A stretch of 64,000 nt of DNA. It comes from Candidatus Nomurabacteria bacterium. Lineage in GTDB: Bacteria; Patescibacteriota; Minisyncoccia; Phycocordibacterales; UBA9973. Below, piece after piece: positions 5,812-55,735 of the stretch. The notes beneath the pieces were generated by a model, which saw nothing but the letters and a program-made list of their open reading frames with translations, ran no database searches and was not told where the DNA came from. Position numbers and translations under genes: made by a program. Numbering within the stretch: position 1 is the stretch's first letter; each line of letters opens with the position of its first letter. The stretch covers positions 34,107 to 98,106 of the forward strand of contig JBPOHU010000009.1 in the NCBI GenBank assembly GCA_052035195.1, given 5' to 3'.

Positions 5812-8280
5812 ATGGCGAAAAAAGCAGAAACCCAGGAAACAATCCCAGAAGAACACGACAAAATTTTGTCGGTTAATATCGTTACCGAAATGCAAAAGTC
5901 ATATATTGACTATGCGATGAGTGTTATCACTGATCGAGCTTTGCCTGATGTTCGTGATGGTCTTAAACCTGTGCACCGAAGAATCTTGTATTCTATGTAT
6001 GAGAGTGGTTTTACTTCAAGTGCCAAGTTCGTAAAAAGTGCGCGTATTGTCGGAGATGTGCTCGGTAAATATCACCCTCACGGAGACACTAGTGTTTATG
6101 ACGCGATGGTAAACCTAGCCCAAGAATTCTCTACTCGTTATCAACTAGTACAAGGTCAAGGTAACTTTGGTTCTATTGATGGAGATGGCGCAGCAGCGAT
6201 GCGTTATACCGAGGCTCGCATGAGTAAGATAGCTAGTGACTTGGTTCGCGATATTGAAAAAAACACAGTTGATTTTCGTCCCAACTATGACGCTACTCGC
6301 AAAGAGCCTAGTGTTTTCCCGACTGCTATACCTAGTCTTTTATTAAATGGAACTCTCGGTATTGCTGTTGGTATGGCAAGTAACATTGCTCCGCACAATC
6401 TCTCTGAGATAGTGGATGCGTGTTTGCATTTGATTGAAAACGATGATGCTACAAATGAAGACTTGGCAGAAATAGTGAAAGGTCCAGACTTCCCAACAGG
6501 CGGACTCGCATTTAACAAAGCAGATATCGTACACGCTCTCTCTACTGGTCGCGGTGGAGTAGTATGTCGTGGTGAATCAGAAATAGCTGAACAAAAAAAC
6601 GGCTCATACCAAATCACTATCACATCACTTCCATATCGAGTTATACGAAGCAACTTCGTAGAATCTATCGCTACACTAGTTCAAGAAAAGAAACTCGAAG
6701 GTATCAAAGGGCTTGAAGATCATTCAGCCAAAGACATGCGTGTTGTGGTCACTTTGAAAAACGGTGTTAACCCACAAAAGGTTCTCAACTATCTATATAA
6801 ACACACACAACTCCAACAAACATTTCACTACAATATGGTGGCCCTAGTAGATGGAGTACCCGAGACTCTTTCTTTGAAGTCTATATTGAATGCTTTTATC
6901 GGTCACAGAGAAGTTGTAGTTAGACGAAGAACAGAATTTGATTTACAAAAAGCCAAAGACCGTGAGCATATATTGCTTGGTTTGAAAAAAGCACTCGACC
7001 ATATCGATCGTGTTATTACCATAATCCGTGAATCAAAAGATGCAGCACTTGCGAAGGTGAACTTGATGAAAGAGTTTAAATTCTCTGACTTACAAGCAAC
7101 TGCTATTTTGGAAATGCGACTTCAGAAGTTGGCTGGCCTTGAGCGAAAAGCTGTAGAACTCGAACTCAAAGAAAAACAAGAACTCATTGCAGAACTCGAA
7201 GCATTGCTCAAGAGTGCCAAGAAAATCTTTGCTGTTATCGCCAAAGAATTGGAAGAAGTAAAAGAAAAGTATGGTGATGAACGCAAAACCAAAATCATGA
7301 ATGGTGGTACAAACATGATCTCTGATGAGGACCTAGTTCCAGAAAAGGAAACAGTACTAGTGTTTACTGCAGGAGGATATGTAAAGCGTACCGATCCAAG
7401 TGAATACAAAGTACAACGCCGAGGAGGTGTAGGAGTGGTAGATTTGGAAACAAAAGAAGAAGACTTTGTTACTCAACTTCTCACCACTGACACTCACAGC
7501 GACTTGCTATTTTTCACCAACAAAGGAAAAGCATACCAAATCAAGATGTACGAACTTCCAGAAGGAAAGCGTGCCACAAAAGGTAAAAGCATCATGAACT
7601 ACCTCTCTCTTGCAGGAGATGAAAATGTTACTTCTATATTAGCTGTTCCAAAATCAGCAAAAGCTGAAAAGGCTTCGCTCATGCTTGTAACCAAAAAAGG
7701 TGTTGCAAAGAAAATCTCATATGAAAGCTTCAAAGACGTGCGTCGTAGTGGAATCATTGCTATTCGTCTTGATGCTGGAGATGAACTAGAAGCAGTACTA
7801 AGAGTACATAAAGGTCAAAGTATTATATTAGCAACATCAGAAGGTCAGTCTATACGTTTTGATGAATCTGATATCCGAGAAATGGGTCGCACTGCTGGAG
7901 GAGTTAGAGCTATGAAGCTTGGTAAACACGACAAACTAATCTGTGCTGATGTCGTAGAAAATGATAAGACTACGGAAGAAAAAAACTATATGCTGGTTAT
8001 GGGAGAAAATGGTATTGGTAAAAAGACTCCTATATCAGAATACAAAGTACAAAAACGTGGTGGCTCAGGTATAAAAACTGCCAAGATAACAACTAAGACA
8101 GGTAAGTTAATGGTTGGGAAAATAGTACAAGACGATATGGAGCTTGTTGCTATGAGTAAGAAAGGTCAAGTAATCAGGGTAGATTTAAATACTATTCCAG
8201 TAAGTGGCCGCCAAACTCAAGGTGTGACTATCATGAAGCTACGAGCAGGGGATACGTTGGCTTCGGTGACGTGTCTATAG
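5812..8280 (+). CDS. gyrA: DNA gyrase subunit A
   Basis: [18 protein letters not shown] motif, active-site Tyr region, C-terminal beta-pinwheel repeats (QxRGGxG), 822 aa. Confidence 0.95.
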
Positions 8281-8290
8281 GGAGGCGCTC

Positions 8291-8374
8291 GGAGATAGCA
8301 ATATCACTTTTTTGCTGCGGAACTCGCTAATCGCTCAGACATATCCTCGCTGCTAAAGTGATATTACTATCTCC
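8291..8374. repeat. Large imperfect inverted repeat (20-bp arms ggagatagcaatatcacttt / aaagtgatattactatctcc, ~44-nt spacer) just downstream of gyrA
   Basis: Arms are reverse complements with one mismatch. Confidence 0.6.
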
Positions 8375-8524
8375 TCGCTTGGGAAGTTAGAGCAGAGTCC
8401 TCGTTGTGTAAATAATATATATCCTCCTTGCTTTTAAAACTAAATAATTAAAAATGTAGTTTTGTTTGCAACTTTACAAACTTTCTACTTTATAACTTTC
8501 TACTTACTGCTATACTATTAATAT

Positions 8525-9049
8525 ATGTTCATGAATCCTGCAGTTATGCTTTCGGCATGCAATCTACAAGTAACAGACTCTGTTGCTGATTTTGGTGCAG
8601 GGAGCGGATTCATGGCTCGCGCTATTGCGGGTATTGTTACTAGAGGAGATGTTTTTGCTATTGAAATAAACCGTGACTTAGTAGCACGTATTACTCACGA
8701 AGCAGAGGAAAACAAAATAACAAATCTGCATCCACTATGGGGAGATGTTGAGATACCAGGCGGATCAAAGCTTGGAGATGCAAGTGTTGATGTTGTAGTT
8801 TTTTCAAATATTTTATTTCAACTAGATGATAAGGCTGGAGCTTTGAGAGAAGCATATAGGGTGCTTAAAAATGGAGGGCATTTGTTAGTTGTTGATTGGC
8901 AAGAGTCTTTCAGTGGGCTTGGTCCAGCACCACAACATGTTTTCAATCAAAAGATGGCAGAAGATCTTTTAACTAATTTAGGCTTTACAAAATTATCAGA
9001 TAACTTGCCAGCCGGAGAGCATCACTATGCTATACTTTTTAAGAAATAA
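8525..9049 (+). CDS. Class I SAM-dependent methyltransferase
   Basis: Motif I VADFGAGSGFMA, acidic motif II region, 174 aa. Confidence 0.7.
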   Translation: MFMNPAVMLSACNLQVTDSVADFGAGSGFMARAIAGIVTRGDVFAIEINRDLVARITHEAEENKITNLHPLWGDVEIPGGSKLGDASVDVVVFSNILFQLDDKAGALREAYRVLKNGGHLLVVDWQESFSGLGPAPQHVFNQKMAEDLLTNLGFTKLSDNLPAGEHHYAILFKK

Positions 9050-9077: not shown

Positions 9078-10388
9078 ATGAAATCTTCATTTCAAACAAT
9101 TTTAATAGGATTATTTATTGCATCTTTTATTGGTGCTATTCTTATTTTTGCTGGTGTTATAAAAATAGGTGGATCATCTTCTTCTACCGCTGTCTCTGGT
9201 AATGTTCGAGTGTGGGGTATTTATTCTCAAGATATTATTCAGCCATATATAGAGCAACTAAATATTCAAAACAGAACAATAATCACTTCTTATCTACAGA
9301 AAAATCCAGAAACCCTAAGAACAGAAATGATTGAAGCTTTAGCAAATGGTACCGCACCAGACTTGGTGATTGCGGGATCTGGAGAGCTTTTCTCTTTTAG
9401 AGACAAGCTCTATACCATACCCTTTGCTACTTATAACGAAAGACTTTTCCGAGATTCTTTTGTTGATGGTGCTTCTATTTTCTTGACGAAAGAGGGTGTT
9501 TTAGCTTCTCCACTTTTAGTAGATCCTTTAGTTGTTTATTACAACAAAGATCTTTTGGCAGGGCAAAGATATGTAACACCTCCAAATACTTGGACAGACC
9601 TTGTGAAATCACTACCTTTGTTTTTGAAGAAAGATTCTCGTGGTGTCATCACTCAGACTTCTATTGCACTTGGAGAGTCTTCAAACATACCTCATTTCAA
9701 AGACATTCTTTCTGCTTTGTTTTTGCAAACTGGTAATCCTATAGTTTCTATAAATAACCAAACAGGCCTATATGAACAAAGACTAACGACTTCTTATTCA
9801 GAAAACGCAGACCAGATGCCCGTTTCTACTGCGCTTGATTTTTATACAAGCTTTGCCAATCAAGCAAACTCTTTATTCTCTTGGTCTAGGACACTACCTT
9901 CATCTCTCGATATGTTCCTATCTGGTAAAAGCGCTTTTTATATAGGGAAAGCTAGCGAGCTATTTACTATCCAATCCCAAAATCCAAACCTTAACTTTGA
10001 TGTAACAACAATGTTCCAAAACGATGGCGCTACACGACCTCTAACTTTTGGGGACTTCAGTGGTGTGGGTATAGTCAAATCAAGTCCTAACTTTACTGCT
10101 TCATATAATATTGTCGGAGCTCTCACAAGCAAAGAATTCATTCAGTATTTATCTAGCTCAGTATCTGTGCCTTCAGCTCGAAGAGACTTGCTTTTAGAAG
10201 CTCAACAAAGTCCTTATGTTCAAGTATTTTTCCAAGCAGTATTATCAGCTTTCGGTTGGCCTGATATCAGTTCTTCAGCTACAGATACTATCTTTCGTGA
10301 TATGATAAGAAATGTTAATAGTGGTGCCTTTAATCCAACACAAGCAATATATGAAGCGTCTCGCGATTTACAGTCTATTGTTCGTTAG
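9078..10388 (+). CDS. Membrane-anchored extracellular solute-binding-like protein (SBP family 1-like)
   Basis: N-terminal signal anchor; segment LVDPLVVYYNKDLLAG...PPNTWTDLV resembles the conserved core of sugar-type ABC substrate-binding proteins; no permease adjacent. Confidence 0.45.
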   Translation: MKSSFQTILIGLFIASFIGAILIFAGVIKIGGSSSSTAVSGNVRVWGIYSQDIIQPYIEQLNIQNRTIITSYLQKNPETLRTEMIEALANGTAPDLVIAGSGELFSFRDKLYTIPFATYNERLFRDSFVDGASIFLTKEGVLASPLLVDPLVVYYNKDLLAGQRYVTPPNTWTDLVKSLPLFLKKDSRGVITQTSIALGESSNIPHFKDILSALFLQTGNPIVSINNQTGLYEQRLTTSYSENADQMPVSTALDFYTSFANQANSLFSWSRTLPSSLDMFLSGKSAFYIGKASELFTIQSQNPNLNFDVTTMFQNDGATRPLTFGDFSGVGIVKSSPNFTASYNIVGALTSKEFIQYLSSSVSVPSARRDLLLEAQQSPYVQVFFQAVLSAFGWPDISSSATDTIFRDMIRNVNSGAFNPTQAIYEASRDLQSIVR

Positions 10389-10950
10389 TATTGCATTATT
10401 TAGCAGTATTGTTTTTTACAGTCCTATTTTTGCTCAATCGTCAAAAAATGACTATATTCCAGATATTTGTAAGAATATAGTATCTATAAAAGGTGCACCT
10501 TCATGTAGTGACGGGATAGACAATAGTAATCCACCAAACGGTAAAGCTGATTATTATGGTGTTGATTGTGATAAAAATGGCTCTCTTGATCTTGAGCCAG
10601 ACCCATCTTGTAAAAGTCTTGTTGATACAGAGAAGTCAGATGAATCTGCCGGGCAGTTTCTCTCTTGTTATAACTTTTGTACATTTTCAGATATTTTAAA
10701 GACTATCAATAATGCTATTACTTTCTTGATAACAGATCTTTTTGTTCCGACGCTAGTTATTATCTTCATGCTAGCCGGAGCTAAATACATATTGGCTCAA
10801 GGAAACTCCGCTAAGATAGCTAATATCAAGAAGATTTTGATCAATATAATAATAGGAGTTTTATTGATACTTTGTTCTTGGCTAATAGTGAAAGTACTGT
10901 TGGTTGTTTTGGTCAAAGATGATGCTAGTGCTCTACAGTTTTTAGAATAG
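10351..10950 (+). CDS. TrbC/VirB2-like pilin paralog 1 (signal peptide, Cys-rich variable region, C-terminal double-TM hairpin)
   Basis: C-terminus FMLAGAKYILAQGNSAKI..KKILINIIIGVLLILCSWLIV matches the TM-helix/charged-loop/TM-helix pattern of VirB2/TrbC-type pilins; start chosen at MKRLAIY (38-nt overlap with upstream gene). Confidence 0.6.
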   Translation: MKRLAIYSLLFVSIALFSSIVFYSPIFAQSSKNDYIPDICKNIVSIKGAPSCSDGIDNSNPPNGKADYYGVDCDKNGSLDLEPDPSCKSLVDTEKSDESAGQFLSCYNFCTFSDILKTINNAITFLITDLFVPTLVIIFMLAGAKYILAQGNSAKIANIKKILINIIIGVLLILCSWLIVKVLLVVLVKDDASALQFLE

Positions 10951-10966
10951 TGATATACTTGTTGTT

Positions 10967-11530
10967 ATGAAACTGAAAACAATCTTCCTCTCATTATTAA
11001 TAGCAACATTATTTTATTTACCAGTATTTGCTCAGCAAACAGGAACCGGTAGTAATGGAGAAATTAAACCTCCAGTTTCTCAGTGTGGAGATGGTTTTGA
11101 TAATGACGGCGATAAGCTTATAGATACTAAAGGGGGAGAAATAAATGGCAAAAAGGTAGAAAAAGATCCACAGTGTACTACTGGGGCTAAATGTGAAAAT
11201 GGAGCTACTACAGCAAATTGTTCTTCTGGAGAAAGTTCTGGCGCCACTGACTTTAACCTACAAGTCAAAATAAATAATCCTCTCAAGGTAGACACTATTT
11301 CAGGAGCTATAGCTCTATTTATGAATGCGGTACTACGCATAGCTTTGCCGTTTATAGTCATATTCTTTATTTGGAGTGGTGTTAGTTTTGTTCTAGCTCG
11401 TGGTAACCCTGAAAAGATAAAAACAGCCAAAAATATGTTTTGGTACACTATTATTGGTACCTTACTTATTTTGGGAGCTTGGGCTATTACAAATGCTATT
11501 ATTGGGACAGTTAACAGTATTACGAGTTAA
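10967..11530 (+). CDS. TrbC/VirB2-like pilin paralog 2
   Basis: Signal peptide, Cys/Gly/Asp-rich variable region, C-terminus FIWSGVSFVLARGNPEKIKTAKNMFWYTIIGTLLILGAWAI. Confidence 0.6.
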   Translation: MKLKTIFLSLLIATLFYLPVFAQQTGTGSNGEIKPPVSQCGDGFDNDGDKLIDTKGGEINGKKVEKDPQCTTGAKCENGATTANCSSGESSGATDFNLQVKINNPLKVDTISGAIALFMNAVLRIALPFIVIFFIWSGVSFVLARGNPEKIKTAKNMFWYTIIGTLLILGAWAITNAIIGTVNSITS

Positions 11531-11532
11531 AC

Positions 11533-12186
11533 ATGAAGAGAATATTTTTTAGTTTTTTAGTTTTAGCTTTTATAGGTTTTATTAGTCCGACAAATGCTCA
11601 ACAACAATGTTCCCAGATAACCAGTTCAAATGTTGGTGTTTGTTGCTCGGGTAGAGATGCTGCTATTAATCAAGATCTATGTATTGATTATGATCTAAGC
11701 CAACAACAAAACTCTGGGACAGGGTCTGCTGGAGGAGGTGTGGGTAATACTGGAGTACTTATAGGTGGTAGTGGTACACCAAATACAAATCCAACAAATT
11801 CTGGAACCAATAACTCTACTATTACTCCTACGCCTCAAGCCAGTTCACCAGCACTTTCTTCTTGTTCTGCTATAAAGTTCAACTCTATTTTAGATATACT
11901 TATCTGGCTCAAATGTATTATTGGTGCAGCTATTATTCCTCTTATATTCACACTGGCTTTCTTGTACTTCTTGTGGGGAATGGTGATGTTTATCAAGGGT
12001 GCAGATGATGTTAAAAAGAGAGAAGAGAGTAAAAAGTTTATATATTGGGGTATTATCGGACTCACTGTGATGATAGCCGTTTGGGGTATTGTACAAATAG
12101 TTACTAGCACATTTGGTTTTGGAAACACTGTTCCTAGACTTCAGACAGATTGTCTGACAACAGACAAAAATAACCCTTGTAAATAA
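11533..12186 (+). CDS. TrbC/VirB2-like pilin paralog 3 (with Gly/Thr/Asn/Ser low-complexity linker)
   Basis: Signal peptide; FLYFLWGMVMFIKGADDVKKREESKKFIYWGIIGLTVMIAVWGIV. Confidence 0.6.
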   Translation: MKRIFFSFLVLAFIGFISPTNAQQQCSQITSSNVGVCCSGRDAAINQDLCIDYDLSQQQNSGTGSAGGGVGNTGVLIGGSGTPNTNPTNSGTNNSTITPTPQASSPALSSCSAIKFNSILDILIWLKCIIGAAIIPLIFTLAFLYFLWGMVMFIKGADDVKKREESKKFIYWGIIGLTVMIAVWGIVQIVTSTFGFGNTVPRLQTDCLTTDKNNPCK

Positions 12187-12251
12187 ATACCTTATGGTAT
12201 ACTAAAAGGGTATTCGTATTAATAAAATAAGTAATAATTTCATTTGATTCT

Positions 12252-12662
12252 ATGAAAAAAATCGTTATGTCATTTATCGCTCTTATGGCTTTGCCAGCAA
12301 GCGCATTAGCACAGGTAACATTACAAGGGGTTCCAAATACAGCATATATTGATACTTGGATAGCAAAGCTTTTGGTCTTTGGTCAACAAGCAACAACATT
12401 CTTGATGATTGCTGCGACTTTGTACTTCATTTGGAGTGTTATTGGTTATATCCGTGAAAAGGATGCCAAAGCTGCAGCAGAAAAGAAAGGAGCAATGCTT
12501 CGAGGTATTATTGGACTTTTCGTTATTGTAGCTATTTGGGGAATAGTGAGACTTATTTCAACTACTCTAGGTATCGGTACAGGCTCTATCAATTCAAGTA
12601 ACGTTCCTTGTCCTCCAGGAATGGAATACTCTACAGTAGTAAACCCTCCTCGTTGTATCTAA
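12252..12662 (+). CDS. TrbC/VirB2-like pilin paralog 4
   Basis: Signal peptide ALPASALAQV; LYFIWSVIGYIREKDAKAAAEKKGAMLRGIIGLFVIVAIWGIV. Confidence 0.6.
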   Translation: MKKIVMSFIALMALPASALAQVTLQGVPNTAYIDTWIAKLLVFGQQATTFLMIAATLYFIWSVIGYIREKDAKAAAEKKGAMLRGIIGLFVIVAIWGIVRLISTTLGIGTGSINSSNVPCPPGMEYSTVVNPPRCI

Positions 12663-12674
12663 ATATAAATCTTT

Positions 12675-13013
12675 ATGTTTGAGTACGTAGCCTATGCAAA
12701 AAGTTTTGATCAAATAGTCTTTGATATAAATAGGACGATACTTAATCCGCTCATACAGTTTGCTTTTATAGTTGCTTTTGTAATCTTCATCTGGGGTGTG
12801 GCTGAGTTTATACGCAAAGCCAATAGTCCAGAAGGTAGAAAAAAGGGACAAGATCACATGATATGGGGTATTGTCGGACTAGTGATTATGGTAGGAGTTT
12901 ATGGCATCATCAACATCCTTATCAATACATTTGGTCTCGGTAGTGCTTCTATCAATAACGATCAGCAAACCTTCACTCCTCCTGTGATAAAAGAAATAAA
13001 GATTCCAAATTAG
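12675..13013 (+). CDS. TrbC/VirB2-like pilin paralog 5 (shortest, no obvious cleavable signal)
   Basis: FIWGVAEFIRKANSPEGRKKGQDHMIWGIVGLVIMVGVYGII. Confidence 0.55.
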   Translation: MFEYVAYAKSFDQIVFDINRTILNPLIQFAFIVAFVIFIWGVAEFIRKANSPEGRKKGQDHMIWGIVGLVIMVGVYGIINILINTFGLGSASINNDQQTFTPPVIKEIKIPN

Positions 13014-13028
13014 ATTCAAAATAAAAAA

Positions 13029-13055
13029 GCCCCGAACATTCGGGGCTTTTGGTTT
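13029..13055. terminator. Bidirectional Rho-independent terminator (gccccgaa-ca-ttcggggc flanked by A-tract and T-tract)
   Basis: Sits between convergent genes ending at 13013 (+) and 13065 (-). Confidence 0.8.
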
Positions 13056-13064
13056 AAAGAACAG

Positions 13065-13769
13065 TTATTTCCTTGAAACTACAACGTTAACAGAGCTTAT
13101 CTCTGACTTAACGTAGATCTTACCAATAAGGGCTTCAGCGATAGGTAAACGAGGTGAGAATAAATATTCTTTTCCCCCTTGTTCGTTTTTCCATAAAATC
13201 AGCCTCCACTTTCTTGTGCGATCTTCTGCTTTTTGGAAATACAGGATTACCTTTTCATCCGTCTCCGGATCAAAGGAAATACCAGGCTGGTCCCAATCTA
13301 CATCAAACTGGAAGAACTGACCCTTTTCCATGAAATTCTCTCCGTCCATTTTGAGGTACGGGGAGCCGATCAAGGGATCCTTTCTATCACTGTTGCCAAT
13401 GACAACGTTTGGTCTCCAGGCTATTTTTTTTGCCTTGTAGTCCTGCCATTCGTAGTAGGCGTAATAACCGATTAAGATTACGGCTATACCACCTAAAACT
13501 TTCCAAATTAACCCTCCTGTAATCTTCTCTGGTTTTTTGATACCAGGTATCTTTTTCCAGAAAATAATTAGAAGAGTTAATACGGCAATAGCTATCCAGA
13601 TCCAAGGATTAACTTCAGGAAAATTGTTTTTTGCAATTAGTCCAGAAATTAGGCTGAATGCTTTTAAAATAAGTAGTCTTACAAAGAAAACTATCGGGAT
13701 GATAACAGCTAATATTATTAACCAGTTTCTCCCGTTTTTGTTCGGTTTACTTCGGTTAGTTGTTTTCAT
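13065..13769 (-). CDS. NfeD-like membrane protein (N-terminal TM helices plus C-terminal soluble beta-rich domain)
   Basis: Three hydrophobic helices then a soluble domain; 14-nt overlap with the upstream SPFH gene, the usual NfeD-stomatin/flotillin pairing. Confidence 0.45.
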   Translation of the reverse strand: MKTTNRSKPNKNGRNWLIILAVIIPIVFFVRLLILKAFSLISGLIAKNNFPEVNPWIWIAIAVLTLLIIFWKKIPGIKKPEKITGGLIWKVLGGIAVILIGYYAYYEWQDYKAKKIAWRPNVVIGNSDRKDPLIGSPYLKMDGENFMEKGQFFQFDVDWDQPGISFDPETDEKVILYFQKAEDRTRKWRLILWKNEQGGKEYLFSPRLPIAEALIGKIYVKSEISSVNVVVSRK

Positions 13770-14874
13770 CTTTTAATTTTTTTTGATCTTGAATACTGTT
13801 TGCAATAAGCATTTCAACCAGATTACTTCCGCCGAGTGCACCTTTGTCAGTAATTAGTGTTCCGTCTAAATCCTTAAGGCTTTCTGCAATAGCAGCAGAG
13901 TTAGCATTCATAAGCTTTTGTAGAGGAGTGATAGCTTTAATTTTTTGCTTTAAAACATCAACCTCTGCCTTTCCAACCTCTGCCGTTCTTTTCTTGAGAA
14001 CGTCTGTCTGGGCGTTTCCTGTCTCAGTTGTTCTTTTTTTCTGAACTTCTGTTTCGGCGTTGCCTTTGATTTTTGTTGCGTCAGCTTCTCCTTCTGCTTT
14101 TGTTACCACAACCTTTTTGCCAAGCTTTGCAAGTTCTACTTCTTGAACTGCCTTCAAGCGCGCCGCTGCTTCAGGGGTTATTATCCAGTCTTCATGAATG
14201 ATGGTAAGAAATTTGAATCCGTATATGGTTTCAAATTCTTCCCGGTTTAGCTCATCCCTTATTTCATTAAGGTCATCTTGTAAGCCAACAGGAGAGCCGT
14301 CTTCTGAGGCAACTCCACGTATATCATCAAACTTTTTCCTTGGAAGCTTAGATCTTAGCTTTGCAATAACTGATTTCTCTGCATATTGCAGAAAGTTACC
14401 ACCGGGAAATTTTGCTAATAGTAACTTCATATCGAGTATTTGTATGGTAAAAAGGAAGATTAACTTCACATCTGTACCATCTATACTGGCGATATTGATT
14501 TCTATCGGGTGTACTTCACGGTCCAAGAGATAGTGCTGGTCGTCTACGGACCTTTGAACGATGCACATTTTTTGAGGAGCTACATCATCGTCAAGTGTTT
14601 CATTTGCACCTTTCATATTTACTTGATAAGTAACGAGAGGGCGTAGACCTCTTTTTTTTGCGTCTTGCTCCGGCATTAGTGATTTCCATGTAAAAGGGAA
14701 TCGAAAAATTTGCTCAAAGACAGGAATAAGTGGTGATATTGGTAATATCGGTGCACTCTCTTCCTCATCATAGAATATTTCTCTTGTCACAGTGTTACCA
14801 CGTGACACGAGATAGTGTTTTCCGCGGACTGGGCTAAAGTTTAGTGTGCCCTTGTCGCTGTACTTTATTGCCAT
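13756..14874 (-). CDS. SPFH/Band-7 domain protein, flotillin-like
   Basis: SPFH-like N-terminal half followed by Glu/Ala/Lys-rich coiled-coil repeats (AEGEADATKIKGNAETEVQKKR...) resembling flotillin EA repeats. Confidence 0.65.
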   Translation of the reverse strand: MAIKYSDKGTLNFSPVRGKHYLVSRGNTVTREIFYDEEESAPILPISPLIPVFEQIFRFPFTWKSLMPEQDAKKRGLRPLVTYQVNMKGANETLDDDVAPQKMCIVQRSVDDQHYLLDREVHPIEINIASIDGTDVKLIFLFTIQILDMKLLLAKFPGGNFLQYAEKSVIAKLRSKLPRKKFDDIRGVASEDGSPVGLQDDLNEIRDELNREEFETIYGFKFLTIIHEDWIITPEAAARLKAVQEVELAKLGKKVVVTKAEGEADATKIKGNAETEVQKKRTTETGNAQTDVLKKRTAEVGKAEVDVLKQKIKAITPLQKLMNANSAAIAESLKDLDGTLITDKGALGGSNLVEMLIANSIQDQKKLKDENN

Positions 14875-15008: not shown

Positions 15009-16082
15009 ATGTTAGAAGCATATCAAAAGGAAGTAGAGAAGAATGACCCTACAATAAAACCTAATCCTGAAGAGCCAACCTTAAAAGAGATTTTAAGCAA
15101 GAAGGAGGACAGTGATCTCTTTGGGGAATTACTTAAATCAGAGCAAGAAGTTGGCCTTACTGGCAGATTAGCTAAGGGAGAGCTTAAAGATGAGGATATA
15201 CAAAGTCTTGATAAATATAGAAAAGAATTTCTAGGCACAATGGAAAGAGTGAAAACAGTAAAAGAATCTATAAATGAGGATATTATAAATCTATATACAA
15301 AAAATAATCCTGAGTTGCAGAAAGTAGTTTCTCTTATTGGTCCATCAGCATATAAAGACATAGTTAAAGAAAAGATTGCAAAGTTAGCAATAACAGATCC
15401 TGGCGCTTTTAACTCACTATCTGAAGCAGTGGAGAGAAAAAATGAATTTAAAGATGGATACTTCAAAGAACTTGATGAAAAAGTTTCTAATCTTTGTAAG
15501 GAAAAAGGAATAAGTCCTGAAAAATATTCTAAAGCTTTAGCTATTGCAGATGATGGAGAGCGTAAAAAAGCTTTGAGGGGTACTATTAGAGAAGGTTATA
15601 ACTGGATGCAAAAAGCGGGAGACTGGATATCTATGGGGTCTTGGTCTAAAAATAGAATCAAGTTAATGGAGTCTCAAAAGCCAGAGATTGATTCAGCCTT
15701 AGAACAAATGCGATCTTATCAGTCAGGTGTCGGGGAATTTCTTGCTGGTATGACAGAGCACGATGAGATAAGATCTGTTTTGAGTAAGGAGTTAATTGGA
15801 GATAAAGAAGAAAAAGTTCCACTGCAAGGATTTAAAGAGTCAAAAGGAGGAATGCCTACAAAAGAAAGTCTACAAAAAAGCTGGGATGAATATAAGCAAA
15901 ATATGCAAAAGCCATGGGATGAATTAACACCTCTAAGACAAGAAAAAGAGAGGGAGGCTTTTGTTGAAGCTCAAAAAGAAGCATTAATTGAACAAAATAA
16001 GAAAAAGTCTGGTTTTTGGAGTAGTATTTTTGAGATATTTTCAGTATCATTTTTTAATAGCAATAAGGCTGAGTTAAACTAA
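15009..16082 (+). CDS. Hypothetical charged coiled-coil protein
   Basis: 357 aa, Lys/Glu-rich, C-terminal hydrophobic/aromatic tail; no motif recognised. Confidence 0.4.
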   Translation: MLEAYQKEVEKNDPTIKPNPEEPTLKEILSKKEDSDLFGELLKSEQEVGLTGRLAKGELKDEDIQSLDKYRKEFLGTMERVKTVKESINEDIINLYTKNNPELQKVVSLIGPSAYKDIVKEKIAKLAITDPGAFNSLSEAVERKNEFKDGYFKELDEKVSNLCKEKGISPEKYSKALAIADDGERKKALRGTIREGYNWMQKAGDWISMGSWSKNRIKLMESQKPEIDSALEQMRSYQSGVGEFLAGMTEHDEIRSVLSKELIGDKEEKVPLQGFKESKGGMPTKESLQKSWDEYKQNMQKPWDELTPLRQEKEREAFVEAQKEALIEQNKKKSGFWSSIFEIFSVSFFNSNKAELN

Positions 16083-16083
16083 T

Positions 16084-16356
16084 ATGAATCAAGAAGAATT
16101 GTACAATTCATTTATTGCACTAGTAGAAGAGGGTGATGAGGAGAAAGCCAGAGCTTTTCTGATTGATCACTTAAATGAATTTCCCGAAGAGACTAAAAAA
16201 GAAATAGCCTTTGCTTTCTTTGTTGATGCTATCAAAAAAGATACAGCTGTCTCTGAAGTTCAAAAGAGGGGATTAGAAATAATGAAAGACCTAGACGAAA
16301 TTAAAGTTATTCTAGAAGATGTTTCCAAGGCTGCATCTATAAAAGAACAGATTTAA
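16084..16356 (+). CDS. Hypothetical small acidic protein
   Basis: 90-aa ORF starting 2 nt after the upstream stop; followed by terminator. Confidence 0.4.
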   Translation: MNQEELYNSFIALVEEGDEEKARAFLIDHLNEFPEETKKEIAFAFFVDAIKKDTAVSEVQKRGLEIMKDLDEIKVILEDVSKAASIKEQI

Positions 16357-16374
16357 TAAAGTTTAAAAATTTCA

Positions 16375-16412
16375 AACAAAAAAACCGCTTCAGGAATGAA
16401 GCGGTTTGTGAA
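16375..16412. terminator. Bidirectional terminator (accgcttca-ggaa-tgaagcggt with flanking A- and T-runs)
   Basis: 9-bp stem, GNRA-like loop; between convergent genes. Confidence 0.75.
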
Positions 16413-16426
16413 AAATCTTTTACCTT

Positions 16427-16963
16427 TTAGGGAATTACCAATTTGTAATTCCTTGGTGATGTTTTTGCAACTCTTGCCATTATTGGTAGGGTTTTTACCC
16501 ATGTTCTGGGGTATTCGAAGGAACTTACCCAGGCGTAGGTATTCACAGGGTCCATCGGTATAGAAATTCCGTTGTGGAAACTAAAGGTTCCGTCTGCGAA
16601 AATTTCTACAAACCAACATTTACCATAGTTAGCAGAGAATCCTCCAGCAGAGTTGTAAACCATGCCTGAGGGTCGGTACTCGTTACCTTCAACAATCCAG
16701 TCCCATCCAGTAGGGAATACCGGTGCATCGACAACGATTGCGTCGCCACTCGGGTTTCCAGGTGTAATGCACTGAACTGATATTTGTCGGCTGCCTACCA
16801 GTACTGTTGCTATGCCACTTACCGGCACACCAACAATTACAGGGTTAAGCCAGGAGGGAGTATAGTCAAATTGCTTACTCTCTCCACGATAGATTTCTTT
16901 GTTTTTTACACAACTTGTGAAAACAAAGAGGGTGGTTGTCAGTAAAAAGATTATCTTTTTCAT
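16427..16963 (-). CDS. Putative lipoprotein, hypothetical
   Basis: Signal peptide ending in lipobox-like LFVFTSC. Confidence 0.5.
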   Translation of the reverse strand: MKKIIFLLTTTLFVFTSCVKNKEIYRGESKQFDYTPSWLNPVIVGVPVSGIATVLVGSRQISVQCITPGNPSGDAIVVDAPVFPTGWDWIVEGNEYRPSGMVYNSAGGFSANYGKCWFVEIFADGTFSFHNGISIPMDPVNTYAWVSSFEYPRTWVKTLPIMARVAKTSPRNYKLVIP

Positions 16964-17091
16964 TGTTTTTTATTTAAAATGAGCAAATGTGTGTTTTTGA
17001 TCTTCTATTAAATAATAGCATATTTAATGCTATTTGTCAAGTAAAAAAGCCCTCACTTATTGCTAAGTAGGGCTTGGTGTTATTGGGTTTT

Positions 17092-17622
17092 TTAAAGCCC
17101 AATAACGTAAGACTGTTCGTTTTCTGACCGGATTACCTTCAGTACACTTACTTTCCGGGAGTAGTTTTTGATCGGCTGTGGTTGAGCCACATACCATTTT
17201 ACTTCGGAATAAGGGTCCGGTGTATTAGCCCATTGACCCTCAACTTCCAGGACTTTGTAGTGCATAACATTGTCAGATCCCAGGCTACCTTCAATGTAAT
17301 AGGCTGTCGCCTTAAAAGCACTGAAACCGTTGTTGTAAAAGAATCCGATAGCCACATTTTTTCCTTGGCCGGGATCATATTCTACAGCTGCCGGTAAGAT
17401 AGGAATACTGAGAAGGATTCCATCTCCGGTCATTCTTCCGCGGCTGTTGCCGCTGGCATTGATTACAGCTTTAAGATTTTTTACTGTACCGCAGGGCAAC
17501 GTGACTTCCGCCACGCCATTCTCACTTACAGTATTAATAGATATGCCGTATCCATCTTCATATGTTTGCCCGAAAGCAAAAGATGAGGTAATCAGAAAAG
17601 CGAAAAAAAGTATTTTTTTCAT
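17092..17622 (-). CDS. Secreted hypothetical protein
   Basis: N-terminal signal peptide MKKILFFAFLITSSFAFGQ; beta-rich. Confidence 0.5.
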   Translation of the reverse strand: MKKILFFAFLITSSFAFGQTYEDGYGISINTVSENGVAEVTLPCGTVKNLKAVINASGNSRGRMTGDGILLSIPILPAAVEYDPGQGKNVAIGFFYNNGFSAFKATAYYIEGSLGSDNVMHYKVLEVEGQWANTPDPYSEVKWYVAQPQPIKNYSRKVSVLKVIRSENEQSYVIGL

Positions 17623-26327: not shown

Positions 26328-27452
26328 ATGAACTTAAAACCACAAAAACCATCTTTTATTACCGAAGAAGAGAGTCTGTCATTAAAAAAAGATAACTCTT
26401 TGATTGTTGAAATTGATGCTTTTTCAAGTGCTGTAGAAGAATTATTTTTTATAGAAAATCCACAATATAAAAAGCCTCAACCGGGTGTTATTGATCTTCT
26501 TGATAAGTATTTAGCATCTTCTACTATTACTCCAGTTTTTATTTATTATCCATGGAAAGCAGTTGTTGTAAAAACTGTTCCAGAAGATATTTATTTTATG
26601 CTTCGCACTGCTCGTAATCGTTTTATAATAAGTCATGAAGAACAAAATGATTACCGAAATCTCCACGTCGCTATTGCAGGTCTTTCTGTAGGTTCAGCTA
26701 TCCTCTCATCAATAGTTGTAAATGGTGGTTCAAAAAAAATGAAAATTGCTGATTTTGACACGGCAGAAATTACTAATTTAAATCGAATGAGAGCAAAACT
26801 TACTGATATTGGAGAAAATAAAGCTTTTATTGCCGCTAAAGAGGTATGGGAACTCGATCCTTACGCAGAGCTTGATCTTTGGAGTGAGGGTATTTCAAAA
26901 GATAGTTTAAATAAGTTTCTTCTTGACCCAAAAGTGGATGTATTTGTAGATGAAATGGATAGTCTTGATTTAAAAATTGCTGCACGTTTTGTTTGCAGAG
27001 AAGCTGGAATACCTGTAGTTATGGCAACAGACAATGGAGATGGGGTCATTCTTGATGTTGAAAGATTTGATCTTGATAAAAAACAAGAAATTTTTCACGG
27101 TCTTCTTGGTGCTGTAACACCAAAAGATTTTGAAAATATTGATTATAAGATGTGGTTACAGCTTGCGACAAAAATTGTTGGACCAACATATCTTACACCT
27201 AGGATGCAGGAGTCTTTATCTGTGATAGGAAAAAATATTCCGTCTGTGCCTCAACTTGGAACAACGGCCAACATAGCAGGTGCGGCAGTATCATTTTGCC
27301 TTAGACGACTTGCTTCAAAACTTCCACTTAATTCAGGTAGATATACAGTTGGCCTTGAAGAAAAAATAATACCGGAATATATGAGTGATGAAGCAGTTAA
27401 AGAAAGAGAAAAAAACACAGAATTTTTTATTAGTCAATTTGGAAAAAAGTAG
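26328..27452 (+). CDS. E1-like/ThiF-MoeB-MccB family adenylyltransferase with ~85-aa N-terminal extension
   Basis: Gly-rich nucleotide loop VAIAGLSVGSAI preceded by RTARNRFIISHEEQ (ThiF-type Rossmann start) at residue ~113 rather than ~35; no C-terminal rhodanese or CxxC pair obvious. Confidence 0.6.
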   Translation: MNLKPQKPSFITEEESLSLKKDNSLIVEIDAFSSAVEELFFIENPQYKKPQPGVIDLLDKYLASSTITPVFIYYPWKAVVVKTVPEDIYFMLRTARNRFIISHEEQNDYRNLHVAIAGLSVGSAILSSIVVNGGSKKMKIADFDTAEITNLNRMRAKLTDIGENKAFIAAKEVWELDPYAELDLWSEGISKDSLNKFLLDPKVDVFVDEMDSLDLKIAARFVCREAGIPVVMATDNGDGVILDVERFDLDKKQEIFHGLLGAVTPKDFENIDYKMWLQLATKIVGPTYLTPRMQESLSVIGKNIPSVPQLGTTANIAGAAVSFCLRRLASKLPLNSGRYTVGLEEKIIPEYMSDEAVKEREKNTEFFISQFGKK

Positions 27453-27465
27453 TAATTTTTGTTTT

Positions 27466-28899
27466 ATGTTTAGATTTATAGGACAAAAAAAACAACTACC
27501 TCTTGATGTTTTTTATACGACCATTCGTGATGTTCCTGCTTACAAAAAATTTATAGAAAAAAACGGTGTAAATTATCATGATATTAAAAGTATTGATGAT
27601 TTTACAAAATATGTTCCGGTAATGAATAAAGATAATTATTTGAAAAGCTATCCTTTCATAGATCTTGTTAAAAAAGGTATTGTTCCTCCTATGGTGTCAG
27701 CAAGCTCAGGATCTTCAGGAAAACCTTTTTACTGGCCACGTGGAGATGAGCAAGAAATTCGCGGAGGAAAACTTCATGAAAAAATTTTTCGAGATATTTT
27801 TAATATCGAAGGACAAAGAACTCTTGTGATAGTTTGTTTTTCTATGGGGAACTGGATAGCAGGGACATTTACAGCCGCATCTTGTCGTTATGTAGCAAAA
27901 CAAAAAAGAATGAATCTTTCTATTATTACTCCGGGAATTGAAAAGGAAGATATTCTCGCCGTCCTTCGTGATCTTGCACCAGAGTTTGAAACAGTTGTTC
28001 TTGCAGGCTATCCACCATTTTTGATGGACGTTATCACTGAATCAAAATCAAGAGGGATACCGCTAGATGTTTTTAAAATAAAATTTCTTTTTGCTGGTGA
28101 GGGGTTTTCTGAACCATGGAGAGAGCTTATTTGTAGCGCTGTAAATATAAACAATAGTCTTTTGGATACAGTTAGCGTTTATGGAACAGCAGACGCTGGA
28201 GCTCTTGGTCATGAAAATCCGCTTACAATTTTTTTACGTAAAAAAGCAACAGAAAATTTAAATTTCAGAGATGAGCTTTTTGGGGATATTGGTTTTGTTC
28301 CAAGTCTTGTTCAGTTTGATCCAGATGCTATTTATTTTGAGCTTATTAATGAGCAGCTTGCTTTTACAACAGATTCAGGTATTCCTCTTATTAGATACGA
28401 TATAAAAGATAAAGGGTCTGTTATAAATCAGACAAAAATAGTTTCAGTTCTAAAAAAATTTAATTTATATGATGAAGCAGAGCATTTTTTAAAGAAATGG
28501 CCTTACCCCATGGTAGCTCTTTTCGGAAGGTCTGATGTTGCGGTAACTTTCTATGCACTTAATATTTATCCAGAAAATATAAAAGCAGCTGTTGAACAAA
28601 GCGGTCTATTGTCAAAGCTTACCGGTAAGTTTATTGCTCGTGTTGAGTCTAACGAAGATCAAACAGTTCAAAAGCTTATTATTAATTTTGAAACATTAGA
28701 AAATATCATTGTAAATGACAATCTCATCGAGGAGACAAAAAGTTCCGTATTTGAAAATCTAACACATCTTAATACAGAATACAGAAAACTCCATAACGCT
28801 ATTGGGGACAGAGCCTTACCAGATATTGAGTTTAGTAATTTTGGTCATGAATTATTTAAATTAAGAAAAAATAAACAATCATGGATAAAGAAACAATAA
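27466..28899 (+). CDS. PaaK-like (phenylacetate-CoA ligase / coenzyme F390 synthetase family) adenylate-forming enzyme
   Basis: P-loop-like SSGSSGKPFYWP matching the (S/T)SGTTGKP box of the PaaK/F390-synthetase branch of the ANL superfamily; length 477 aa; start at MFRFIGQ. Confidence 0.6.
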   Translation: MFRFIGQKKQLPLDVFYTTIRDVPAYKKFIEKNGVNYHDIKSIDDFTKYVPVMNKDNYLKSYPFIDLVKKGIVPPMVSASSGSSGKPFYWPRGDEQEIRGGKLHEKIFRDIFNIEGQRTLVIVCFSMGNWIAGTFTAASCRYVAKQKRMNLSIITPGIEKEDILAVLRDLAPEFETVVLAGYPPFLMDVITESKSRGIPLDVFKIKFLFAGEGFSEPWRELICSAVNINNSLLDTVSVYGTADAGALGHENPLTIFLRKKATENLNFRDELFGDIGFVPSLVQFDPDAIYFELINEQLAFTTDSGIPLIRYDIKDKGSVINQTKIVSVLKKFNLYDEAEHFLKKWPYPMVALFGRSDVAVTFYALNIYPENIKAAVEQSGLLSKLTGKFIARVESNEDQTVQKLIINFETLENIIVNDNLIEETKSSVFENLTHLNTEYRKLHNAIGDRALPDIEFSNFGHELFKLRKNKQSWIKKQ

Positions 28900-29960
28900 A
28901 TAGTGAGTTTGTTATAAAGAAAATTGTTTCTGAGAGTATGAATACTCCTTCGGGGGACAACTGTCAGCCTTGGTATTTTTCTATAAAAAATTCAACTCTT
29001 TTTGTTTATAAAAAAGATGAAGGTAATAATAACTACTTAGATTTTGAATCAAGGGGGACACTTTTGGCCCATGGTGCTTTAGTTGAAAATATATCTTTAG
29101 TCGCAAGACATTATGGTTATAGTATAGAAAGTACTTTTTTTCCAGAAAAAGATAAAAAAGACTTAGTAACAACAATTAGTTTTTTAGAAAATAATTCTTT
29201 AAATAAAGAAGAAGATGATCTTTTTGAGTTTTTACCAAAGAGGTCTACAAATAGAAAACAATACTTTAAGAAAGCTATTTTAGAAAAAGATAAAGAATAC
29301 CTATTAAGTAATCTAGGTCAGAACAATGTAACTCTTGATTTTATAGGAGATGATTCGGATAAAAAAAATATCTTTATTTCAACAACTCAAATGGAAAGAG
29401 TAGCTCTACAAAACAAGTTTTTACATAAACTCTTTTTCAGTAGCATCGTTTGGTCACAAAAGGAAGAACAAGAAAAAAAACAAGGACTTTATTTAAAAAC
29501 TATGGAGTTACCACCACCAGTTGCTGTTTTCTTTAGATTACTTAAATTTTGGCCGATTGCTAAGTTTTTGTCAAAAATCAGCTTTTCAAAAAAAGTCGCC
29601 GAGAACAACGCATCTTCATATCAGTCTTCTTATCCCGTTATTTTTTCTATAAAAAATACAGACCCTATTTCTTATATTGAACTAGGTATGGCTGTAGAGC
29701 GTTTTTGGCTTAGAGCAACAAAATTAGATATTGCTGTTCAGCCACTAGCTGGAGTATTATATATGTATCAGCGATTACATGAAGAGGGTAATAAAGATGC
29801 TGTTTTATCAAAAGAAGAAGTTCGTCTAATAGAAAATAGTTATCAAAAAATTAAAAATTTTACTTCGGATAGTGATGCTATAGTTTCTATGATCTTAAGA
29901 GTAGGGTATTCAAAAAAAGCTTCAGCAATATCTTCAAAAAAAGAACCTGAATTCTTATAG
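28881..29960 (+). CDS. Nitroreductase-fold protein, double-lobed (SagB/McbC-type dehydrogenase-like or Acg-like)
   Basis: N-terminal PSGDNCQPW box (nitroreductase FMN-binding start) and a second nitroreductase-like half near the C-terminus; 19-nt overlap with the upstream gene. Confidence 0.55.
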   Translation: MDKETINSEFVIKKIVSESMNTPSGDNCQPWYFSIKNSTLFVYKKDEGNNNYLDFESRGTLLAHGALVENISLVARHYGYSIESTFFPEKDKKDLVTTISFLENNSLNKEEDDLFEFLPKRSTNRKQYFKKAILEKDKEYLLSNLGQNNVTLDFIGDDSDKKNIFISTTQMERVALQNKFLHKLFFSSIVWSQKEEQEKKQGLYLKTMELPPPVAVFFRLLKFWPIAKFLSKISFSKKVAENNASSYQSSYPVIFSIKNTDPISYIELGMAVERFWLRATKLDIAVQPLAGVLYMYQRLHEEGNKDAVLSKEEVRLIENSYQKIKNFTSDSDAIVSMILRVGYSKKASAISSKKEPEFL

Positions 29961-54746: not shown

Positions 54747-54751
54747 TTTTT

Positions 54752-55555
54752 ATGACTAAGCATTATTATTTATATATTGATGATTCAGGATCAAGGTTTC
54801 CGGATAAAAATTCTGAAAAAAGAAATGATGGAATGGATCATTTTGCTTTAGGTGGAATTTTAGTTGAGAGTAATAATAGAGATGTTTTAAAGAAAAAATA
54901 TATTGAATTTTGTCAAAAATGGCAAATTCATTACCCTTTACATTCAACTGAAATTAGAGGAATGAGAAGAAGTTTTTCTTGGCTTGAAAAAAGCTCAAAA
55001 CAAAAAGATAAATTTTTAGAAGAACTAACTAATTTTTTAGTAGAGATTCCAGTTATAGGTTTTGCCGCAGTTATTCATAGGCCCGGGTATAATTTTCGCT
55101 ATAAATATAAATACGGAGATAAAAGATGGTGGATGTGTAAAACAACTTATTCAATTTTAATTGAAAGAGTTTCAAGGTATGTCAAAGATAATAATGGAAC
55201 TTTTGAGATTAGATTTGAGGGCGTTGGACCGAAAGAAGATAAGGCTATTATTCAGTATGCAAAAGATCTAAAAAATATAGGATCACCTTTTGATCCTTTT
55301 ACTTCTAATAAGTATAATCCTTTAAAAAAAGAAGATTATAAAAAAATTATTTTAGGAGAACCAAGGCAACGTTTTAAAGAAAATTTATTTATACAAATAG
55401 CAGATTTATATTTATATCCTATGGTAAAAAGAAAATATGACCCGTCATATAAATCATGGAATATTTTATTTGATAATAAAAAAGTGATAGATTCTTTTGT
55501 AGAAGAAATAGATTTAAATGATAAAGGAATTAAATATAGTTGTTTTGACTTTTAG
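54752..55555 (+). CDS. DUF3800 family protein
   Basis: N-terminal YLYIDDSGS plus conserved His/Asp positions characteristic of DUF3800; 5 nt downstream of the RM gene. Confidence 0.6.
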   Translation: MTKHYYLYIDDSGSRFPDKNSEKRNDGMDHFALGGILVESNNRDVLKKKYIEFCQKWQIHYPLHSTEIRGMRRSFSWLEKSSKQKDKFLEELTNFLVEIPVIGFAAVIHRPGYNFRYKYKYGDKRWWMCKTTYSILIERVSRYVKDNNGTFEIRFEGVGPKEDKAIIQYAKDLKNIGSPFDPFTSNKYNPLKKEDYKKIILGEPRQRFKENLFIQIADLYLYPMVKRKYDPSYKSWNILFDNKKVIDSFVEEIDLNDKGIKYSCFDF

Positions 55556-55563
55556 GTATAAAG

Positions 55564-55594
55564 CAAAAATCCTGAGTTTCCTCAGGATTTTTTG
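55564..55594 (+). terminator. Rho-independent terminator (aaaatcctgag-tttc-ctcaggatttt + T-run)
   Basis: 11-bp stem. Confidence 0.8.
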
Positions 55595-55735
55595 CCGGCT
55601 CGCAAACGCGAACCCCCGGGCAATGCCCATGTCTACATATTAACAGAATATGTAAAAAAATCAATAGCTGTGTGGATAACTTAATTATCTCTAAAACCAT
55701 GGTATTAGTCATATTCTTTTATATACTAAATAAGT

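Follow-up and report, generated by a model that had tools for sequence, protein, structure and literature searches.

The genes considered here lie on a stretch of 64,000 nucleotides from a Candidatus Nomurabacteria bacterium (contig JBPOHU010000009.1, positions 34,107 to 98,106; hereafter the 64 kb window), in which five small tandem genes encode divergent proteins resembling the VirB2/TrbC pilins of type IV secretion systems (T4SSs). These five paralogs are numbered P1 to P5 in gene order, and they are preceded by the gene for a solute-binding-like protein (SBP). P1-P5 are ancient paralogs under purifying selection; in many lineages each has a one-to-one orthologue, with gene order and chromosomal site unchanged. 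It had originally been predicted that the array reflects the diversification or exchange of a surface-exposed variable domain, for example for antigenic variation. This is not supported in the clade studied, in which the five genes are a fixed conserved set and not a variable surface set. It is probable that the operon combines a membrane-anchored sugar-type SBP with five non-interchangeable VirB2-like proteins that work with a VirB4-type T4SS.

Conservation was analyzed in approximately 40 informative loci, retrieved through look-ups of exact proteins and through one scan each of GTDB species genomes and of metagenomes. In every locus that was long enough, the gene order was GyrA, methyltransferase, SBP and five pilin-like genes; this order was seen in nine lineages by exact-protein look-up, in ten GTDB species representatives (some of them truncated) and in 24 metagenome loci of at least 7 kb, and five pilin genes were present in all complete loci. 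The source names of these relatives (Candidatus Nomurabacteria, Pacebacteria, Paceibacterota and Patescibacteria group) point to Paceibacteria-type organisms; assemblies with the operon include GCA_964367675.1, GCA_036405895.1 and GCA_964474435.1, and it is also present in the sample behind SRR34217545. When the proteins were compared across genomes, the best BLAST hit was the paralog at the same position in 450 of 450 cases from ten lineages, and no DNA repeats longer than 25 nt were found between the paralogs. On these two grounds, recent duplication and gene conversion between the paralogs were rejected. Paralog-specific signatures were also retained, namely 'SALQFLE' in P1, 'APTPQASS' and 'TFGFGNTVP.LQTD' in P3, a 'CPPG...C' loop in P4 and the lack of a signal peptide in P5.

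At the strain level, DNA identity to the window is 89-96% in four public contigs. In these strains, whose loci were retrieved by exact P2 identity, the protein identities of P1-P5 are 99.0, 100, 100, 97.1 and 98.2%, respectively, which are similar to those of GyrA and IF-2. Measured against a close relative and against a more distant one, the dN/dS values of the pilin genes are 0.02-0.17. Invariance of the paralogs across strains had been named beforehand as an outcome that would speak against a variable array, and the 97-100% protein identity in strains with 92-96% DNA identity comes close to such invariance. In comparison with locus L001, blocks of 100% DNA identity (6600-9000 and 11100-12300) alternate with blocks of 92-97% identity, a pattern suggestive of homologous recombination among strains in the recent past; P2 and P3 are spanned exactly by one of the blocks.

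Between lineages, divergence is concentrated outside the pilin module. Across nine lineages, the identities of the module and of the N-terminal region are 58 and 21% for P1 (length 176-432 aa), 79 and 23% for P2 (140-259 aa), 66 and 26% for P3 (197-309 aa), 52 and 40% for P4 (125-136 aa), and 64 and 55% for P5 (111-116 aa), with the module of P2 being the most conserved of the five. The outer domains of P1-P3 have been remodelled through the gain and loss of a Cys/Asp-rich module, Thr-rich beta-type domains and low-complexity linkers. This turnover is limited to P1-P3 and to distant lineages, and we propose that the variation represents slow lineage-level remodelling of outer domains, not switching or exchange among the five genes. 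In a distant high-GC clade (loci L065-L086, e.g. L074 8526-12041), in which GyrA is 61% identical and the SBP is 33% identical, five pilin-like genes again follow the SBP gene, in the order P2-like, P3/4-like, a divergent 141-aa pilin-like gene with extra hydrophobic segments, P3/4-like and P5-like. A P1-type gene is absent from this clade, and the third pilin-like gene gives a weak match to the Pfam family PF18895 (22.6 bits).

All five genes are co-oriented, with spacers of 16, 2, 65 and 12 nt. An ATG at 10312 is an alternative start for P1, giving 212 aa; the public gene calls give 199 aa. According to hydropathy, two strongly hydrophobic 19-mers with a short Lys/Arg/Gly/Asn-rich loop between them are present in five of the five paralogs. 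The tandem arrangement, the spacers and the shared two-helix C-terminal module described in the original prediction were all borne out, and every peptide string quoted there was found. Signal peptides had been assigned to four of the five proteins; hydropathy bears this out to the extent of an N-terminal hydrophobic signal-like segment ending in Ala-Gln in P1-P4 and none in P5, with the putative cleavage site between Ala and Gln placed by the -3/-1 rule. A module hidden Markov model built from orthologues matched only P1-P5 among the 386 open reading frames (ORFs) of at least 50 aa, with no sixth copy in the window.

Pairwise identity between the paralogs is 15-38%. P1 and P2 form one subgroup, being 30% identical over approximately 185 residues (E = 5e-15), and their N-terminal parts have in common a Cys/Asp-rich 'C-x-DG-x-DN...DP-x-C' module, with one copy in each. 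The earlier statement that the N-terminal parts differ completely therefore does not hold. P3, P4 and P5 form the other subgroup, with 32-38% module identity and the tail T-[FL]-G-x-G in common. The Cys counts of P1-P5 are 7, 4, 8, 2 and 0, respectively, and the Gly/Thr/Asn/Ser tract of P3 lies at approximately residues 58-100. The acidic double-disulfide module, of which P1 and P2 each have a single copy in the outer domain, was also observed in an archaeal secreted protein from a Methanobacteriota metagenome-assembled genome (MAG; L026 3193-5034), as five tandem 'QC-x-DGFDNDGD-x-x-TDYPADPGC' repeats, and in a Woesearchaeota MAG (L025). This module seems to be shuffled among the surface proteins of ultra-small bacteria and archaea.

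Membership of the pilin families was evaluated against the Pfam gathering scores of PF18895 (T4SS_pilin; 26.6 bits) and PF04956 (TrbC; 27.9 bits) and the NCBIfam cut-off of NF045849 (Mycoplasma pilin-like proteins of integrative and conjugative elements, ICEs; 40 bits). PF18895 is passed by all five paralogs, with scores of 36.0 bits for P1 (E = 7.7e-9), 38.3 bits for P2, 27.8 bits for P3, 27.0 bits for P4 and 27.8 bits for P5, so that P3-P5 clear the cut-off only narrowly. The PF04956 cut-off is reached by no window paralog, P1 giving 18.3 bits (E = 0.0028) and P2-P5 no match. The NF045849 scores of P2, P3, P4 and P5 (27.4, 31.3, 18.8 and 34.7 bits) are below the cut-off. Among 99 P2 orthologues, matches with E <= 0.001 were obtained to PF18895 in 99, to PF04956 in 62 (best E = 1.9e-8) and to NF045849 in 88 (best E = 8.6e-8), and a precomputed PF04956 assignment is present on several of them. 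Another NCBIfam family, NF033662, is matched by P2 below its cut-off (E = 5.9e-5) and by 37 of the 99 orthologues.

The AlphaFold2 model of P2 is a helical hairpin (helices 111-143 and 148-186, pLDDT > 90), which is compatible with a pilin but not specific to one. The Ala-Gln junction, where signal peptidase is predicted to cut, is kept in both families and is the processing site in Agrobacterium VirB2; Q23 is kept in at least 90% of the P2 orthologues, and A47 and Q48 are invariant in six aligned VirB2/TrbC proteins. The VirB2/TrbC identity given to the array in the original prediction thus stands at the level of PF18895, whereas the PF04956 cut-off is not reached and profile-profile comparison is not significant. 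The link of P1-P5 to canonical TrbC/VirB2 is remote, and direct homology to Agrobacterium VirB2 is not claimed because the profile-profile comparison with plasmid VirB2/TrbC proteins was not significant.

At E <= 0.001, a profile built from the five paralogs matched 31,010 cluster representatives (clustering at 50% identity), in agreement with the earlier remark that such pilin families are abundant in the candidate phyla radiation (Patescibacteria). Three of the sequences encountered (P0279, P0271 and P0384) are single polypeptides with many pilin modules (16 stretches in 1,775 aa, 11 in 1,147 aa and 11 in 1,382 aa, respectively), and are either fused pilin arrays or gene-calling artefacts. 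In a Falkowbacteria MAG (L027 1874-4423), a T4SS_pilin-like module lies near the N-terminus of an 849-aa ORF that adjoins a 1,853-aa ORF; the architecture of the 849-aa ORF is unlike that of the small pilins.

The upstream neighbour had been described as solute-binding-like, and two Pfam families above their cut-offs confirm this (Table 1). Its nearest solved relatives are carbohydrate-binding proteins (best match 4r9f, MBP1; E = 1.8e-8). As read from the sequence, the last 38 nt at the 3' end of the SBP gene overlap the P1 start codon, and the SBP and pilin genes are probably transcribed together, with their translation coupled. An SBP homologue lies directly 5' of the array in every related locus with upstream sequence, including the distant clade. 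Pfam scans of the window ORFs revealed no ABC permease or ATPase adjoining the SBP. The synteny of the methyltransferase with the SBP-pilin unit is as strict as that of the SBP. A hairpin between the methyltransferase and SBP genes has no T-run on the + strand, and the hairpin after P5 is the single strong terminator there, which ends both the SBP-pilin unit and a convergent operon encoding an SPFH (stomatin/prohibitin/flotillin-fold) protein. The + strand thus lacks a terminator T-run before the SBP gene and has a strong terminator after P5, and the transcription unit is therefore likely to be (methyltransferase)-SBP-P1...P5.

Table 1. Features of the SBP-pilin unit and its neighbours, with positions in the window.
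Feature	Position	Strand	Length	Description
Class I SAM-dependent methyltransferase	8525-9049		174 aa	5' of SBP
Solute-binding-like protein (SBP)	9078-10388	+	436 aa	Membrane-anchored, sugar-type; SBP_bac_8 44.3 bits, SBP_bac_1 36.9 bits, both above cut-off
P1	10351-10950	+	199 aa	Signal peptide, Cys/Asp-rich outer domain (6 Cys), T4SS_pilin module, C-terminal 'SALQFLE'
P2	10967-11530	+	187 aa	Signal peptide, one acidic double-disulfide-type module, pilin module; ends just past helix 2
P3	11533-12186	+	217 aa	Signal peptide, Cys-rich segment, Gly/Thr/Asn/Ser linker, pilin module, two-Cys C-terminal tail
P4	12252-12662	+	136 aa	Signal peptide, short N-region, pilin module, tail with conserved 'CPPG...C' disulfide-type loop
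P5	12675-13013	+	112 aa	No signal peptide; pilin module, Pro-rich C-terminal tail
Bidirectional intrinsic terminator hairpin AAAAGCCCCGAACATTCGGGGCTTTT	13025-13050	both		11-bp stem with 6 GC pairs (terminator scan); T-runs on both strands
Multi-pass membrane protein with beta-rich C-domain	13065-13769	-		Partner in convergent two-gene operon 13065-14874
SPFH (stomatin/prohibitin/flotillin-fold) protein, divergent	13756-14874	-		AlphaFold2 model and Foldseek

The original prediction had placed no VirB4, VirB6 or VirD4 beside the array, and scans of the window ORFs of at least 110 aa indeed yielded no T4SS Pfam family. The window is ordinary chromosome, with GyrA, ClpB, IF-2, DnaB, several aminoacyl-tRNA synthetases, MraY/FtsW/MurG and ScpA/B. 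The large ORFs that flank the arrays in relatives are housekeeping genes, with no VirB4-like gene in those flanks. An 804-aa ORF was considered as a hidden VirB4 and was rejected, as it has an NPPY methyltransferase-type motif and matches neither a Pfam family nor a P-loop family. It belongs to a region of GC 0.30 (52332-56233), in which it is followed by DUF3800 (54752-55555) and DUF2726 (55736-56233) genes and which may be a restriction or defence islet. Among the related loci inspected, genes resembling those of type IV coupling proteins (T4CPs) were found near the array only in L014 (15385-20441), in which an integrase gene and then two T4CP-like genes (TraG-D_C, DUF87, TrwB) lie a few kilobases downstream; this insertion is probably a mobile element that integrated there and has no relation to the conserved operon.

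Pilin arrays of this kind have been surveyed across the phylum. In a search of 3,035 Patescibacteria genomes with PF18895, PF04956 and other profiles, VirB4 was found in 2,417 assemblies (approximately 80%), and a pilin was located near virB4 in only 1,135 of the 1,948 VirB4-containing assemblies with VirB2-like pilins (Quiñonero-Coronel et al., 2025; PMC12102498). The same study defined an array as at least two VirB2-like genes in tandem or one gene apart with low identity within the array, and reported 441 arrays of 2-11 genes with a mean within-array identity of 25% and a maximum of 54%; antigenic variation or adaptation to different hosts was suggested for them, with Bartonella and Anaplasma cited as precedents. 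It also placed the Patescibacteria VirB4 in the monoderm MPF-FATA class, and makes no mention of gyrA or a binding protein; its supplementary tables, which were consulted for the presence of VirB4, do not include the assembly accessions of the relatives analyzed here. In Southlakia epibionticum (ML1, with six pilins), Tn-seq showed that the predicted pilins located in series within the T4SS cluster are essential (Wang et al., 2023; PMC10633639), which is the sole genetic evidence on such pilins in the phylum, and a 2025 review highlighted pilin series as unique among monoderm T4SSs (PMC12857230).

Arrays without a T4SS in view are common in the phylum, and the array described here is of the published kind: it consists of tandem PF18895/PF04956-type genes in a monoderm ultra-small host, it has five members within the published range of 2-11 and an identity of 15-38%, and it falls under the published definition; in the published survey, too, pilins can be far from virB4. 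However, it differs from the published arrays in its fixed housekeeping site by gyrA, in the sugar-type SBP that is always 5' and in its stable one-to-one five-gene set. Furthermore, the array of Southlakia epibionticum (ML1) lies inside a T4SS cluster, whereas that in the window is neither inside nor beside one, and arrays are most abundant in Microgenomatia and Saccharimonadia according to the published papers, whereas the source names here are of Paceibacteria type.

The canonical VirB2 of the Agrobacterium Ti plasmid and TrbC of RP4 resemble P1-P5 in the signal peptide, the two hydrophobic helices with a short loop and the Ala-Gln junction. However, canonical virB2 is a single gene between virB1 and virB3 in the T4SS operon of a diderm host, with a mature product of approximately 70 residues, whereas the window has five paralogs with outer domains of 20-330 residues and C-terminal tails in a monoderm host, and no adjoining T4SS genes. 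The Mbov_0395 family (NF045849) of Mycoplasma ICEs likewise comprises small two-helix proteins from a wall-less or monoderm host, and P2-P5 match its profile with E <= 0.001 (18.8-34.7 bits, below the cut-off of 40 bits). This similarity fits the published placement of the Patescibacteria VirB4 in the MPF-FATA class (PMC12102498), although the Mbov_0395 proteins have approximately 80 residues, reside in mobile elements and are not known to occur as arrays. With the pilin sets of type IV pili and of type II secretion pseudopili, the analogy is one of organization only: their divergent paralogs are co-encoded, have one hydrophobic assembly module in common and are each kept as a distinct orthologue with a fixed role, one as the core subunit and several as low-abundance or tip subunits. 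The fold and export signal are unrelated, as type IV pilins carry a class III signal peptide that a prepilin peptidase removes and a single N-terminal helix, neither of which is found in P1-P5.

In the mechanism that we consider probable, P1-P4 would be exported by the Sec pathway and cleaved by signal peptidase between Ala and Gln. The hairpins would then insert in the membrane with the basic loop in the cytoplasm, so that the N-terminal domains would face outward, as would the C-terminal tails of P3-P5. A VirB4-type T4SS encoded elsewhere in the genome, for which a position near dnaA would be expected in Paceibacteria, would extract the subunits from the membrane and assemble them as a mixed fibre or an envelope-spanning conduit. 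P2 is the candidate for the core (major) subunit because it is the most conserved and the most TrbC-like, P4 and P5 would be small accessory subunits, and P1 and P3 would touch the host cell with their fast-evolving outer domains, which are rich in disulfides or of low complexity. The SBP, being co-translated, may act in the same surface process, in glycan recognition or nutrient capture.

Several observations weigh against this mechanism. A fold search with the P2 hairpin gave no match, to a pilin or otherwise, at E < 1, and sequence searches of the PDB, whether with P2 or with the profile of 99 sequences, returned nothing. The alignment of P2 orthologues gave an hhalign probability of 0.5% (E = 0.11, helix 2 only) against six VirB2/TrbC proteins, and that of the five window paralogs gave 0.2% against the same six; all six are from alphaproteobacterial plasmids, and with so small and narrow a reference set the negative is a weak one. 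No T4SS component was found in the 64 kb window, nor in the approximately 10 kb that flank the array on either side in the related loci that were inspected. To our knowledge, no pilus has been seen in any Patescibacteria, and 'pilin' is for this reason a homology-based name here. In addition, the outer domains reach approximately 330 residues (P1 in L014), far above those of known conjugative pilins, and may be incompatible with polymerization. Finally, the retrieval of loci by exact P2 identity biases the strain comparison, and the complete DNA identity of P2 and P3 to L001 looks like a recombination block.

Other explanations of the array were weighed against the same evidence. If the paralogs were cassettes for antigenic or host-range variation, they would be alternative pilin versions that are exchanged or differentially expressed. 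Their low mutual identity does match the mean of 25% in the published arrays, and the P1-P3 outer domains evolve far faster than the modules between lineages, with length changes through domain gain and loss; the Bartonella and Anaplasma precedents (cited in PMC12102498) also favour it. However, an array of that type should vary in copy number or sequence between close strains, with recombination or positive selection among the copies, whereas in the loci analyzed here the five genes and their order are constant, the best hits are positional in 450 of 450 cases, dN/dS does not exceed 0.17, the strain proteins are 97-100% identical and there are no repeats to serve gene conversion. In addition, the paralog-specific signatures ('SALQFLE' in P1, the 'CPPG...C' loop in P4, and P5 without a signal peptide) fit distinct roles, and the truly hypervariable gene near the array is that at 15009-16082, which is none of the five. 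Variation cassettes are thus quite improbable. It is more improbable still that the proteins are not pilins at all but holin-, bacteriocin- or immunity-like membrane proteins that match the profile through their hydrophobic composition: although P3-P5 are barely over the PF18895 cut-off (27.0-27.8 against 26.6 bits), the two-helix hairpin gives no specific fold match, and weak stray matches to Holin_SPP1, DUF350 and an immunity protein were obtained, those stray matches are all far below their own cut-offs. Moreover, the curated cut-off is passed by all five paralogs, with P1 and P2 at E of approximately 1e-9, and the P2 orthologues match PF18895 without exception and TrbC in the majority of cases (62 of 99). 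Pfam scans of the window detected no bacteriocin, lysis or phage genes nearby, and the conserved housekeeping-like chromosomal position is unlike that of lysis or toxin cassettes.

A T4SS-independent surface apparatus is unlikely. The SBP and five two-helix proteins would make up a membrane or surface complex of their own, either a platform for adhesion or an unconventional channel for uptake, with 5 x 2 = 10 helices supplied by the sugar-binding protein, and the VirB2-like hairpin would be only an anchor or channel element. The linkage to the SBP in every locus with upstream sequence, its persistence at deep divergence and the start/stop overlap favour such an apparatus, as do the lack of a T4SS gene near the array in the related loci inspected, the lack of an ABC permease or ATPase adjoining the SBP and the large outer domains, which are unlike those of known pilins. 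However, the family is defined by T4SS clusters, occurs repeatedly inside those of other Patescibacteria and is essential there together with VirB4 (PMC10633639), VirB4 is present in approximately 80% of assemblies with VirB2-like genes often far from virB4 (PMC12102498), the P2 orthologues match both the TrbC/VirB2 and the Mycoplasma ICE pilin-like profiles, and adjacency to the SBP is no proof of a physical interaction. We also regard as unlikely that, in Paceibacteria-type bacteria, the SBP and five-hairpin operon is a self-contained envelope device of deep conservation, in the form of a mixed fibre or channel coupled to the SBP, which would be either independent of VirB4 or the hitherto unrecognized substrate-receiving end of a VirB4 machine; if so, an SBP-coupled device would, for example, capture or import host-derived material.

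Downstream of the array, an NfeD-flotillin pair had been predicted. The flotillin part is upheld as an SPFH fold for the 13756-14874 protein, the model of which matches HflK/C, prohibitin, stomatin, QmcA and flotillin (E = 3e-8 to 1e-4; mean pLDDT only 54); its homologue P0247 passes the Band_7 cut-off (30.2 against 23.6 bits), whereas the window protein itself gives no match. The NfeD part found no support, as the 13065-13769 protein has no Pfam or NCBIfam match. A perfect sigma-70-like promoter is located at 14950-14921, 5' of the SPFH operon. The SPFH pair is fast-evolving (17-36% identity between lineages) and was not detected in L024, in which a homologue of the 15009-16082 gene lies directly 3' of P5; in the distant clade other genes occur downstream of the array in its place. 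On these grounds, and because a bidirectional terminator lies between them, the SPFH operon was rejected as a part of the system and is probably only its context.

Beyond this operon, the DNA at 15009-17100 is hypervariable between strains, with 60-68% identity to L001 and flanks of 95-100%. The 357-aa protein of the 15009-16082 gene, which has no family match, is 57% identical to the L001 allele and 92% identical to that of the more distant L006. For the SPFH gene (13756-14874) the pattern is reversed, with 98% to L001 and 26% to L006. These patterns look like allele replacement by recombination. The strain-variable zone also contains two adjoining genes on the minus strand (16427-17622) that encode proteins of 178 and 176 aa, both secreted or lipoprotein-like; they have no family match and are kept as a pair in close relatives. 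Elsewhere in the window, a region of GC 0.31-0.34 (26328-29960) carries an Rv1355c-family protein split into ThiF-like (26328-27452) and nitroreductase/Acg-like (28881-29960) halves, with a PaaK-like adenylate-forming ligase (27385-28899) between them, and could represent a small cassette for modification or biosynthesis.

Only a few systems have been demonstrated to be essential to the host-dependent lifestyle of Patescibacteria, and these include the T4SS and its pilin series. What is modestly new here is that the five genes form a fixed orthologous set and that this set is invariably linked, probably with translational coupling, to a sugar-type SBP next to gyrA. Whereas the published discussion favours variation or host range, the fixed set seen in this one large clade points to a structure built of several subunits, with a core and with accessory or tip components, not a wardrobe of alternatives. 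The SBP is a candidate partner of the pilin set, and the known picture of these arrays is refined by this finding, with no new kind of system being implied.

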